Origin: Candidatus Fermentibacterota bacterium
GTDB lineage: Bacteria; Fermentibacterota; Fermentibacteria; Fermentibacterales; JCC-6
Assembly (NCBI GenBank): GCA_963845085.1
Contig: CAWJQI010000004.1
Span: forward strand, 1-64,000
DNA: 64,000 nucleotides
Direction of reading: 5' to 3'
Below the pieces are notes generated by a model. That model made no database searches. It was not told where the DNA came from and saw nothing but the letters and a program-made list of their open reading frames with translations. Made by a program: the position numbers and the translations under genes. Shown here piece by piece: positions 48,897-52,792 of the stretch. Within the stretch, counting starts at the first letter, position 1, and the number at the start of each line of letters is the position of its first letter.

Positions 48897-50023
48897 CGGC
48901 CGTCCCGGGTGTCATCCCCGGCCTGGTCGGTGGAACCGAAGCGCTTCCCGAACTCCCTGGAATCCTCGTCATCGGCCCTCTGAAGAAGGTCCTCGCCGTC
49001 CTTCGCCTTTCTCACCGCAAGGTAGCAGAGCGTCCAGAAAGACGCGCAGCTCGAAAGCCAGTACGAGAAAATGATGAGCGCGATCGCAACTCCGGAGAGG
49101 GAGGCCAGCCAGCCCGCGGCCCCATGCCATGCGAAAGGATCGCCCGCGAGGCTGCCGAGCGGCGAAAGGAATGAGCCGTAGTGGGATATGAGCTGGGGCG
49201 CGGCCGTGTGCAGCCCGCCCTGGACTGAAGTGGCCAGGCCGGTATTGCCCATCCCGATGCCGACCCCGAAGGCAACTATGGCCATGGCGCCCCGTGCGAA
49301 TGCCATGAACAACAAAAGGGCTGCGGCCCTCGCGATCAGACCGGTTGCCATGTAGAGAATGATCCTGAAGGGTTGCGACGTTATGGAACTGAACAGCTCG
49401 AACAGGGTCTCGAAGGTGTCGCCCCTGGTGCAGGCGGTGATGGCCGGCACCATGAAGATGGACAGCAGGAGGGCGATCAGCGCGAGGACCCCGAACAGCG
49501 AGATCCCCCAGGCAGGAACCGCAAGGATGCCTGCGATCACCGGCCCGGCACCCGGTATCCGACCGATCAGGCCCATGATGAAGAGCTTGACGAACAGGAT
49601 GGAGAGCCCTGCAAGCACTGCGACGGGAACCATCAGCAGGGGCTTCCTGTTCCCGCGATGGAACTCGAGGGCGTCCCTTCCGCTGTAGAAGCCGTCGCCC
49701 CTGATCTGCTCGAACGTTATCCGGCCGACCTTCTGGAAGGCGGACATGATGATCCACAGGCATGCAAGGAGCGCGGCCGCCATGAAAATGAGCGCGACGG
49801 TGCTCTCAAGGAACAGCCCCTCGGGTATGGGGAAGAGCCTGGAAACCTGCCACCGCCCCGCCATGGAATCTCCGGCTGCGAAAAAGCCGAGGTAGACCAT
49901 GCCCGACCAGACGAGCCACGAAAGGACCAGGGCCTTCCAGACAACCCAGAGGTTCCTCGCGCTCAGACCGTACTTAACTGAAAGGAGCATGTCCCTTATG
50001 TCAAAATGGAGCTTGTGGATCAT
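48893..50023 (-). CDS. Hypothetical polytopic membrane protein
   Basis: Six or more TM segments; ATGA overlap with dnaE. Confidence 0.75.
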   Translation of the reverse strand: MIHKLHFDIRDMLLSVKYGLSARNLWVVWKALVLSWLVWSGMVYLGFFAAGDSMAGRWQVSRLFPIPEGLFLESTVALIFMAAALLACLWIIMSAFQKVGRITFEQIRGDGFYSGRDALEFHRGNRKPLLMVPVAVLAGLSILFVKLFIMGLIGRIPGAGPVIAGILAVPAWGISLFGVLALIALLLSIFMVPAITACTRGDTFETLFELFSSITSQPFRIILYMATGLIARAAALLLFMAFARGAMAIVAFGVGIGMGNTGLATSVQGGLHTAAPQLISHYGSFLSPLGSLAGDPFAWHGAAGWLASLSGVAIALIIFSYWLSSCASFWTLCYLAVRKAKDGEDLLQRADDEDSREFGKRFGSTDQAGDDTRDGR

Positions 50024-50715
50024 TACAATCCTCCCTGCTTGCTGTTCCCGGTTCCTTCCGATGCTGCCCTATCATACTCCCGGCCCCGGTTTCACGGAAG
50101 TTCACGGCCAGGCAGACCACGTCGGAAGCGCCGGCCCGCTCGAGGGCGATGCGGGCGTTCGCAAGGGTTTCCCCGGTTGCCCGTACATCGTCGAGAAGCC
50201 ATATCCTTCCGGGCGGAACCTTCTTCGTCACCCGGAACGCCCCCTTCAGGTTGTGCCTTCGCTCATCCGCCGTCAGGCCGACCTGACTCGGGCCGGGATT
50301 TCTCCCGAGCAGCACGCTGAAGCGGGCTCCGGTCAGGGCACTCACCCGGCGCGCGATGATCTCAACCTGGTTGTAGCCCCTTTTACGAAGGGTGCTTCGG
50401 GACGAGGGCACACATGTTACGGTTTCACCCCGTGACGGGATGCTGTCCCACTCCCCCGTCGCCATCTCGGCGAGAACGGAGCCGAGGTGTCTTTCCCCGT
50501 GATACTTCAGCCTGATCATCATGTCGCGCATTACACCCTGGTGAAGAAAGGCGGCGTGCCGTGGGGCCGTCGTCACGCTCCGGCACCGGTCGCACCCGGG
50601 CAAGACACCATGGGCAGAGATTAGAGCCCTTCGCCGGTGCCCTTCCTCCGCATCCCGGGCACATTGTAAGGAAGAAAAGGCTCAGGATCTTCTTCGCTGC
50701 CGATGGTAGAGCCAT
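50001..50715 (-). pseudogene. comF: ComF family protein (Zn ribbon plus PRTase), frameshifted as assembled (+1 near 50565)
   Basis: CPGC..LCPWC in one frame; LKY, RGYNQ, LLDDVRATGET in the next. Confidence 0.85.
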
Positions 50716-51491
50716 GTTCCCAGAACAGGCGAGGCTATGAGCATGAGCAGGCTGAACACCTGGTTGTCGGTTATGCCTGATCGTCCTGCAAAGGCGCTGT
50801 AGCCCAATAGATCGATCGGAAGGTGGTCGAAGTGCCGAAACTCCTCCAGCCCGAAGCGTGTTGCGCCGTACAGCCCGAGGAACAGGCAGAAGATGAAGCC
50901 CGGGAAATGGCGGCGTCTGTCGGCGAGCAGAAGAGCGGCGAACATGAACAGGCCCGCTGCCGACGCGTAAAGCTGGGCAGGGTGGATGGGTATCGAACCG
51001 TATGACTCCCATGGCAGCGAGCCGGGGGGGAAGCAGACTCCCAGTGCACTGTGCGTGGGCGAGCCGAAACAGCATCCATTGAGGAAACACCCGATGCGGG
51101 TGATGAATATTCCGAGCGGAAACGCCGGAATGACTGCATCGGCGAGTTCCCATGTCGGCCAGTGCCTGCGGGCGATGTAGGTGAACCCGGTAATGACTGC
51201 GAGGATCACTCCGCCAAGCATGCTGAGGCCGTAAAGACCGTTCCAGAAGGCGATGATTTGTATCGGAGAGCTTGCGAACTCCCCGAGATGGGTGACCACG
51301 TAGAGCGCCCTCGACCCGACAACGGCGGCGAGCATGATCCAGACACCCATTGATGTGATGTCATCGGAGGGTATGCCCCTTCGGGCGCTCCGCCTGGCGG
51401 CGAGTTTCACCCCGAGCAGAAACGACAGTGCCAGGGCAAGCCCGTAGGAATTCAGCGGCACGCTGCCTATCCTCAAGAGAACGGGATGCAT
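50682..51491 (-). CDS. lgt: Prolipoprotein diacylglyceryl transferase
   Basis: SYG, GSRALYV, RIGCFLNGCCFG, HPAQLY, RFGLEEFR. Confidence 0.93.
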   Translation of the reverse strand: MHPVLLRIGSVPLNSYGLALALSFLLGVKLAARRSARRGIPSDDITSMGVWIMLAAVVGSRALYVVTHLGEFASSPIQIIAFWNGLYGLSMLGGVILAVITGFTYIARRHWPTWELADAVIPAFPLGIFITRIGCFLNGCCFGSPTHSALGVCFPPGSLPWESYGSIPIHPAQLYASAAGLFMFAALLLADRRRHFPGFIFCLFLGLYGATRFGLEEFRHFDHLPIDLLGYSAFAGRSGITDNQVFSLLMLIASPVLGTWLYHRQRRRS

Positions 51492-51675: not shown

Positions 51676-51750
51676 ATCAGTCAGATATGAATTCCTTCCC
51701 ATATGTGCACGGATTCGAACATAAAGCCACCCTGTGAACGGAGGTCCCGA

Positions 51751-52752
51751 ATGAAGCTTTTCGCGATCGCAGTCGCCCTGGTCGCAGCGGTCTCGCTGGC
51801 CGCACCGAGGGTCGTACTTTTTGAAGAGTTCACATCCACTGGTTGAGGATACTGCGGAAGCAGCTGGTCAGCTGTTAAAGCCCTCGTAAACACTTATGTC
51901 GCGAATGATCAGATAGCCCCTCAGATCCTCTTCTTCAACGGTCCCGCATCAGGTGCCTACAGCTCCGCAAGAATCGCTTTCTACGGGGTCGGAGCAACAC
52001 CCACATTCAAGATCGACGGCCTTCTTTCGCAGGCCGGCTGGAGCCAGGCCGTCGTCCAGAACCACATCAACAACAGGCTCAACGTCCCGGCCCATGTTTC
52101 CTTTGACATCAACTTCGTCGGCAACGCATCCGGGGGAACCGCGTACTACAGCATCACAGCGGAAGAGGATCCGGGCGTCGGCAACCTGAAGGTCTGGTCG
52201 GCCGTTGTTGAAAGCCATGACATCGCCTACAGCGCTTACGGTGTCTACAACGGTCAGGAGCTCATGTGGGAACCCAGGGCATGGCCCCTGGGAAGCACCG
52301 GCACCGTGATCAACTTCACCGGCCCCTTCCCGCAGACGGTGTACGCCATGGGTTCCTACACCCTCGATCCCTCAGTGCACAGCTTCGAAAACCTTGAAGT
52401 TGTCACATACGTTCAGGCGGGCACGGGGACCAAAGAGGTTCTCAACGCCAGCTTCATCGACCTTCCGGACACGGCCACCGGCACATACGAGGGCTCCTTC
52501 ACGCCCGTTGACGGAAATGCGCTTCTCTTCGCGGGGCCTAACCCCTGCGACGGTCAGTTCACCGTAACCTCCGCCCTGCCCCAGGGGCAGACCGGAACCG
52601 TTTCGGTTTATGACCTCGGCGGAAGAATGGTTCAGAGCTTCGCCGCCGGCTGCTCGGTCAACGCGGTCATCGAGGAAACGGGTTTGTACTTCGTGCGCCT
52701 TGTGACCAGCACCGGTCTGGTCGAGAACAGGCAGATCGCTGTCGTAAGGTAG
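51751..52752 (+). CDS. Secreted Omp28-like thioredoxin-fold selenoprotein (UxxC) with T9SS/FlgD-type C-terminal domain
   Basis: GGAGG RBS; signal peptide; VLFEEFTSTG-TGA-GYC; YGVGATPTFKIDG cis-Pro loop; frame open for 333 codons apart from TGA at 51844-51846; PNP...YDLGGRMV...GLYFVRL tail. Confidence 0.85.
51859..51876 (+). promoter_or_regulatory. Bacterial SECIS element
   Basis: AGCAGCT-GGTC-AGCTGTT hairpin starting 12 nt after the UGA. Confidence 0.75.
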
Positions 52753-52768: not shown

Positions 52769-52792
52769 GGGGGGCGCATGACTGCGCCCCCC
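52769..52792. terminator. Terminator hairpin between the selenoprotein gene and rodA
   Basis: GGGGGGCGCA-TGAC-TGCGCCCCCC, perfect 10-bp stem. Confidence 0.7.

Follow-up and report, generated by a model that had tools for sequence, protein, structure and literature searches.

Does the TGA at positions 51844–51846 of this Candidatus Fermentibacterota contig end an open reading frame, or does it specify an active-site residue in a longer, exported protein? The window, meaning the whole stretch of 64,000 nucleotides that was analysed, holds an ATG at 51751 followed in frame by no stop codon but this TGA until a TAG at 52750–52752. A preliminary description of the locus had listed a ribosome-binding site, an ATG, a signal peptide and the motif VLFEEFTSTG-U-GYC around a single in-frame TGA. 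All of these are present, giving 333 residues when TGA is read as selenocysteine (Sec, U), while a plain list of open reading frames shows the last 162 amino acids alone (52264–52752). The gene stands by itself, divergent to lgt and convergent to the rodA end of a cell-shape operon, and these neighbours in the window give no hint on function. The features, all on the forward strand, are the following.

51740–51745, +: Shine-Dalgarno sequence GGAGGT, 5 nt 5' of the ATG (sequence)
51751–52752, +: full gene, 333 codons, one in-frame TGA, very probably read as Sec (sequence and homologues)
51751–51801, +: predicted signal peptide, residues 1–17, type I, with A-x-A and no lipobox Cys (sequence, hydropathy)
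51802–52086, +: thioredoxin-fold domain, approximately residues 18–112 (AlphaFold2, pLDDT 92; fold matches)
51844–51846, +: TGA, codon 32, predicted Sec32, attacking residue of U-G-Y-C (HBP35 alignment; TGA/Cys column)
51853–51855, +: Cys35, resolving cysteine (invariant in 58/58 aligned proteins)
51859–51876, +: SECIS upper stem-loop AGCAGCU-GGUC-AGCUGUU, +16 to +33 from the UGA (fold, covariation)
51997–52002, +: Thr83-Pro84, cis-proline loop position of the thioredoxin fold (conservation)
52090–52476, +: second domain, a beta-sandwich of Omp28/HBP35 type, approximately residues 114–242 (structure matches)
52477–52512, +: flexible linker, residues 243–254 (pLDDT <50)
52513–52749, +: T9SS type A sorting domain, residues 255–333 (TIGR04183, PF18962, fold)
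52769–52792, +: 10-bp G+C hairpin 3' of the stop (fold z -2.09)

The last of these is a probable terminator common to the gene and the convergent rodA; a terminator scan made no call on it.

The machinery for Sec insertion was all found in the genome, which is 88% complete: selA, selB and selD score over their cut-offs, and a tRNA-Sec is recognised at 71.4 bits. The selD gene has its own in-frame TGA and hairpin. The same genome encodes four copies of the family with TGA at the active-site column, this gene included, and a fifth copy with Cys (CGPC). Across the phylum (Fermentibacteria in database names), a homologue occurs in 64 of 70 genomes and selA in 67, the three genomes without selA being 61–73% complete. 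In three genomes of one genus (G061, G051, G048) the neighbours of the gene are selD and selA, and selB comes next where the contig reaches (two of the three).

Tabulation of Cys against TGA at the active-site column covered 59 distinct phylum genes from the 30 best loci plus 20 hand-picked regions, a set in which divergent and Cys forms were chosen and which is not a random sample. TGA occupies the column in 49, TGC or TGT in 10 and any other codon in none; approximately 300 open codons follow in 58 of the 59, the remaining gene running off its locus. The TGA had been placed at the first, attacking Cys of the redox motif, and it does align with the first Cys of WCGYC in HBP35. The match to an Omp28 motif also stands, except that the residue before Sec is Gly instead of the quoted Trp (46 of 48 full-length TGA genes). 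The Pro of the Thr-Pro loop is conserved in at least 90% of rows, the pair reading T-P in 41/48 TGA genes and V-P in 10/10 Cys genes. Four sequencing runs gave short contigs of relatives. At the TGA codon a single such contig, of low depth, shows no alternative letter among those listed, which is weak evidence, and the RNA run covers 172 nt of the 3' half.

Pipelines truncate the gene, as had been anticipated. All 76 database homologues (lengths 183–583 searched) start 3' of the TGA, at or after residue 42 and without the active site; two are named as Fermentibacteria T9SS proteins. These gene calls favour a reading without Sec, in which the TGA really terminates translation, results from a sequencing error or has been reassigned to Trp or Gly, with either a pseudogene or a product that starts after it, as do the natural internal starts reported for HBP35 (PMC2907840) and the presence of at least one apparent frameshift, in sprA, in this assembly. 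Such a reading is nevertheless very improbable. The TGA recurs in 49 genes from many genomes at 25–70% identity, alternating solely with Cys, and the signal peptide and motif 5' of it are conserved. Furthermore, TGA is the commonest true stop, closing 653 of 971 frames of at least 400 codons and 16 of the 49 genes themselves, the tRNA-Trp reads CCA, and the sole tRNA with a TCA anticodon at default settings is the tRNA-Sec; codon reassignment is rejected by this stop usage and these anticodons.

A SECIS hairpin had likewise been claimed for this site. It is present, as a stem of 51859–51865 with 51870–51876 closed by a GGUC loop, and folding allows a lower stem of 51845–51848 with 51881–51884. 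As a single sequence its folding is not significant (z -0.97 and 0.10), and its support comes from covariation. Over the 49 TGA genes, 91% of stem cells are paired and double changes occur at 5 of the 7 pairs; for example, a silent Ser change is matched by an Ala-to-Thr change. Double-change cells number 31, where shuffling gives 8.1 and none of 500 shuffles reaches 31, with all slid registers lower, although the TGA genes are kin and these cells represent a few independent events. On average 6.4 of 7 pairs are kept in TGA genes versus 3.3 in Cys genes, and 45 of the 49 TGA genes carry G at +24, in the apical loop. Five of the 49 have five pairs or fewer in register; in three of these the hairpin folds with a shift of one base, and another has no good hairpin. 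Machinery, conservation and covariation together make it nearly certain, as far as genomic data can, that the TGA encodes Sec through SelB and this hairpin, giving U32-G-Y-C35.

Three Cys forms (L046, L047 and L048, from G044, G061 and G033) branch from within the Sec clade, no longer keep the hairpin register and lie in genomes that retain selA; from their sequences they are taken as Sec-to-Cys reversions. A genome-wide screen for TGA plus hairpin returned 755 of 11,186 sites, which is too loose for a selenoproteome and was used to spot paralogue families.

The recoded protein was modelled with AlphaFold2 from a 58-row alignment (mean pLDDT 92), yielding a thioredoxin domain and a beta-sandwich that a disordered linker of 12 residues joins to an Ig-like tail. 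The thioredoxin domain matches thioredoxins at Z 8–9, and the cis geometry of Thr83-Pro84 is presumably that of the thioredoxin fold. We also take the GY dipeptide and T-P loop to resemble those of DsbC. Between the redox residues, 14 kinds of dipeptide occur among 48 TGA genes; since the SECIS constrains this region and the dipeptide varies, a DsbC-like reading is weakened.

HBP35 of Porphyromonas gingivalis (PDB 5Y1A) is the best PDB match, found by profile over the whole length (E 3.6e-4) and ranked top by both Foldseek (E 3.9e-14) and VIA-align (Z 23.0, rmsd 2.9, 224 residues aligned, 15% identity). A phmmer search of the PDB with the single protein had instead given matches to designed propellers, rejected as spurious. 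The beta domain, which lies within the 224-residue match, also resembles the P. gingivalis Omp28 domain 2R2C (Z 9.0). HBP35 shares the order of parts (thioredoxin, beta-sandwich, C-terminal sorting domain), the fold and the GY dipeptide, but it has Cys-Gly-Tyr-Cys and no selenium, is only 15% identical, and its host has a full PorKLMN motor. Two further relatives place the core more broadly. The DUF1223 protein AGR_C_4864 (PDB 2AXO) has the same two-domain core (Z 17.4 over 198 residues) but no sorting tail. The Omp28 lipoprotein family (NF033782, PF11551, 2R2C) has a related thioredoxin plus beta-sandwich core (E 0.003); membership in it was rejected, because scores fall under the cut-offs (NF033782 16.8 bits vs 150; PF11551 15.1 vs 34.9, E 0.021) and a lipobox Cys is lacking. 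A simple hydropathy script found a Cys at the cleavage region in 0/59 homologues and a signal-type hydrophobic core in 59/59, in keeping with the Sec-pathway export that had been proposed from the predicted signal peptide.

Whether such proteins had already been described as a selenoprotein family was a question left by the preliminary description, and the answer is that the superfamily has a described Sec branch. NF045500, the ‘Omp28-related selenoprotein’ model, matches residues 18–238 (E 6.6e-6); membership is rejected on score, 25.7 bits lying far below the cut-off of 200, a value reached in 0 of 70 phylum genomes (best 44). A 2026 review lists NF045500 in its Table 1 as GOS_C, with motif UxxC (PMC13188914). 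The original prediction of GOS_C, made in 2008, rested on 74 Sec and 312 Cys sequences of thioredoxin-like fold and came with no functional evidence; the available portion of that report links the group neither to HBP35 nor to type IX secretion (PMC2398784). As in the present gene, a signal peptide, a thioredoxin-like fold, UxxC, Sec placed first in E/D-F-T-x-x-x-U-x-x-C and a coding-region SECIS are described there. In the two GOS_C sequences seen in its supplement, by contrast, Sec follows Asn, the N-terminal spacer is longer and the domain is followed by an acidic repeat; the Fermentibacterota clade has Gly before Sec and a compact core-plus-tail layout. The gene thus belongs to a branch, so far unannotated, of a group of selenoproteins that was predicted in 2008: its kind is known, and its clade is not in the NF045500 model. 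The recoding mechanism itself is textbook.

For BSepDB, known families served as seeds of iterated tblastn searches that included Fermentibacterota genomes (PMC13326102); the present genes may therefore be filed there under GOS_C already. A word search of the text of the deep-Sep paper (PMC12013277) gave no match. Literature searches returned no relevant paper on Omp28 selenoproteins or selenocysteine, none on selenocysteine in Fermentibacter, and none joining selenoproteins with type IX secretion.

The group extends well beyond this phylum. A search of GTDB with the pattern E-x-F-T-x-x-W-TGA-x-x-C-P, which excludes the Gly-type Fermentibacterota clade, gave at least 123 sites. Of 123 listed matches, 15 were left out (13 look like chance, two are short or broken family-like frames), leaving at least 108 further Sec genes of the superfamily, each with a family-profile E below 1e-4 and at least 70 open codons after the TGA. 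Among the matches listed, a signal-like stretch is present in 100 of 105 scorable genes, and the 30 nt 3' of the TGA fold at -9.3 versus -4.2 kcal/mol further downstream. Record titles of the matches listed carry about ten phylum labels, including Cloacimonadota, Marinimicrobia, WOR-3, Eisenbacteria, Planctomycetota and Bacteroidales as well as Acidobacteriota, Gemmatimonadota, Armatimonadota and Dehalogenimonas, at least two of which look doubtful from a tree. None of 46 pattern-found genes scored reaches the NF045500 cut-off (best 85; one of the 46 is a chance match in fabH), and 18 of the 46 match TIGR04183, several others being cut by the locus end. selA was found in 27 of 31 host genomes tested, versus 4 of 8 genomes with chance matches. 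Truncation appears here also: of the 21 database homologues of one Marinimicrobia member, 18 lack the part with the motif, and the other three, which are full-length, carry Cys or have no motif at all.

A quick tree, built without true NF045500 members, places the 58 Fermentibacterota genes on a single branch (SH-aLRT 99), within which Sec forms alternate with Cys forms; because long branches meet in this version, the phylum-level branch alone is used. Four relatives from other phyla (L095, L103, L107 and L120) end in S/T-W/L-G-x-V-K-x-L-F/Y and not in an Ig-like tail. This short C-terminal motif is possibly an alternative sorting signal.

Where the protein acts depends on its tail. The preliminary description had proposed surface sorting through the C-terminal domain. 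The T9SS-type tail is real: it scores 28.3 bits with TIGR04183 (cut-off 23) and 26.5 with PF18962 (cut-off 27, 0.5 bit under), resembles the tails of PorZ and PorU (Z ~10) and RgpB (9.4), and is found in 56 of 58 aligned members. Surface sorting itself is held less firmly, PorM/GldM and PorN/GldN not having been found. None of 70 phylum genomes gave a recognisable GldM/PorM, nor did GldN/PorN turn up in the two genomes tested for it. Two of three control genomes labelled Bacteroidota did match, both of them Bacteroidales and strongly, the third being a 1.6 Mb genome labelled Winogradskyella. The canonical motor is thus either absent or not recognisable. SprA and PorV-family genes score over their cut-offs in the genome, and a PorU-like gene (290 bits vs a cut-off of 420) adjoins porV. 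SprA was found in 29 of 29 phylum genomes searched, mostly as one frame of about 1890 codons; here sprA is split over two frames of 474 and 1435 codons, through either an assembly error or a real lesion. With SprA, PorV and PorU-like genes present and no recognisable PorM or PorN, surface delivery is likely.

Two gene arrangements were seen around these components. On C1 (L201:2022–10968), pilB lies 44 nt past sprA on the same strand and is followed by a second PilB/GspE-like ATPase. At C4:81900–91600 (L200:1903–11620), the porU-like gene and porV share an apparent operon with genes for an M6-like metalloprotease and a tail-bearing protein, approximately 30 kb from the present gene.

HBP35 offers the closest guide to activity. 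It is reported to reduce insulin through C48 and C51, both of which are needed (PMC2907840), and to be exported to the surface by the T9SS with loss of its tail and A-LPS modification (PMC3120885). On balance the probable course of events is that the UGA is recoded through SelB and the SECIS and that the product leaves by the Sec pathway, reaches the surface by means of its tail and there exchanges thiols and disulfides through its selenolate and Cys35. In the first step SelB, docked on the hairpin that follows the UGA, would deliver Sec-tRNA, yielding U32-G-Y-C35, and there is strong reason to expect that the signal peptide would then carry the chain across the inner membrane. With moderate confidence, the C-terminal domain would be recognised by outer-membrane machinery of the SprA/PorV/PorU type and then removed at the linker, for which residues 243–254 are the likely place by analogy with HBP35. 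The two-domain core would be released or anchored at the surface as for HBP35, again with moderate confidence. There the selenolate would attack disulfides of other secreted Cys-containing proteins and Cys35 would resolve the adduct, making the enzyme, if HBP35 is a fair guide, a thiol-disulfide reductase or isomerase. The reported absence of an oxidative-stress phenotype in HBP35 mutants (PMC2907840) counts against this course.

The same selenoenzyme might instead stay in the periplasm, its Ig-like tail unused, and serve as a DsbC/DsbG-like foldase for tail-bearing proteins before their export. The genome holds many tail-bearing proteins, Planctomycetota and Dehalogenimonas relatives have other C-terminal domains or none, HBP35 complemented an Escherichia coli dsbA mutant (cited in PMC2907840), and the PorM and PorN results point the same way. 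So does the search for DsbB, which returned nothing in this 88% complete genome. For DsbD there was a single weak match over half the length, and no redox partner or electron donor was identified, which counts against the preferred course. A periplasmic site is a possibility of lower probability, since SprA is kept throughout the 29 phylum genomes, porV and the porU-like gene are adjacent, and the tail passes the TIGR04183 cut-off and folds like proven tails.

That the main task at the surface is binding or scavenging (of haem, soft metals or peroxide), in which the selenol would act as a ligand or an antioxidant, and not disulfide exchange on proteins, appears unlikely. HBP35 is reported to bind haemin via its C-terminal part, independently of its cysteines (PMC2907840), the same beta domain is present here, and several paralogues per genome suggest different ligands; HBP35 is however only 15% identical, no residues of a haem site were recognised, neither redox residue varies, and no haem or metal uptake gene stands beside the gene in the window, where lgt and the rodA operon are its neighbours.

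If the preferred course, with export to the surface, holds, these would be selenoenzymes acting outside the outer membrane. An active site is restored to a phylum-wide family that public annotation truncates, and GOS_C, so far without a function, gains a characterised template in HBP35 and proves far wider than the curated NF045500 model. Specialists could make use of the link to HBP35, of the breadth beyond that model and of the apparent lack of a T9SS motor.

A second expanded TGA family was met in the same genomes. Besides a signal peptide and the motif P-x-C-x-x-U, its members have a beta domain of jelly-roll/CBM-like type and, at the C-terminus, a TFGxIK helix, an ending of the same kind as that of the four relatives from other phyla. 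Loci in this genome are C4:762587, C4:763224, C4:277362, C5:711884, C5:711240, C5:289472 and C5:145099 (L195–L199). The model reaches pLDDT 94 with a best Z of ~10, no NCBIfam or Pfam entry matches, and the SECIS lies in the same register (CGCUACC-AGGU-GGUAGUG). The family occurs in 68 of 70 phylum genomes with approximately 300 matches, most of those listed having one TGA. In G061:C59 (L222) and G051:C99 (L223) its Sec form lies directly upstream of the Sec HBP35-like gene, beside selD and selA, and in three other genomes (L225, L226 and L228) a Cys form lies beside a Cys HBP35-like gene. The two families could be redox partners.

A wider interpretation is offered tentatively, as a whole of three parts. 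Sec HBP35-like thioredoxins may be selenoenzymes of the cell surface that make up a large class, for the most part not yet catalogued, in marine bacteria and uncultured anaerobes, with hosts among Fermentibacterota, Cloacimonadota, Marinimicrobia, WOR-3, Eisenbacteria, Planctomycetota and some Bacteroidales. The T9SS of Fermentibacterota may work without PorM and PorN, perhaps driven by the pilus-type ATPases behind sprA. Together with the exported CxxU family, most recognised selenoprotein genes of the genome may serve extracytoplasmic redox chemistry.

Two minor observations concern the sequence itself. At 50001–51153 on the reverse strand of the window, a comF-like region extends over two frames, with a zinc-ribbon hint in one open reading frame and PRTase-like text in the next, possibly through a frameshift or a start miscall. 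Finally, the tail at 52513–52749 is nearly identical to that of the paralogue C5:786597 (C5:787300–787553), while the cores are 56% alike, which suggests recent gene conversion or tail swapping.
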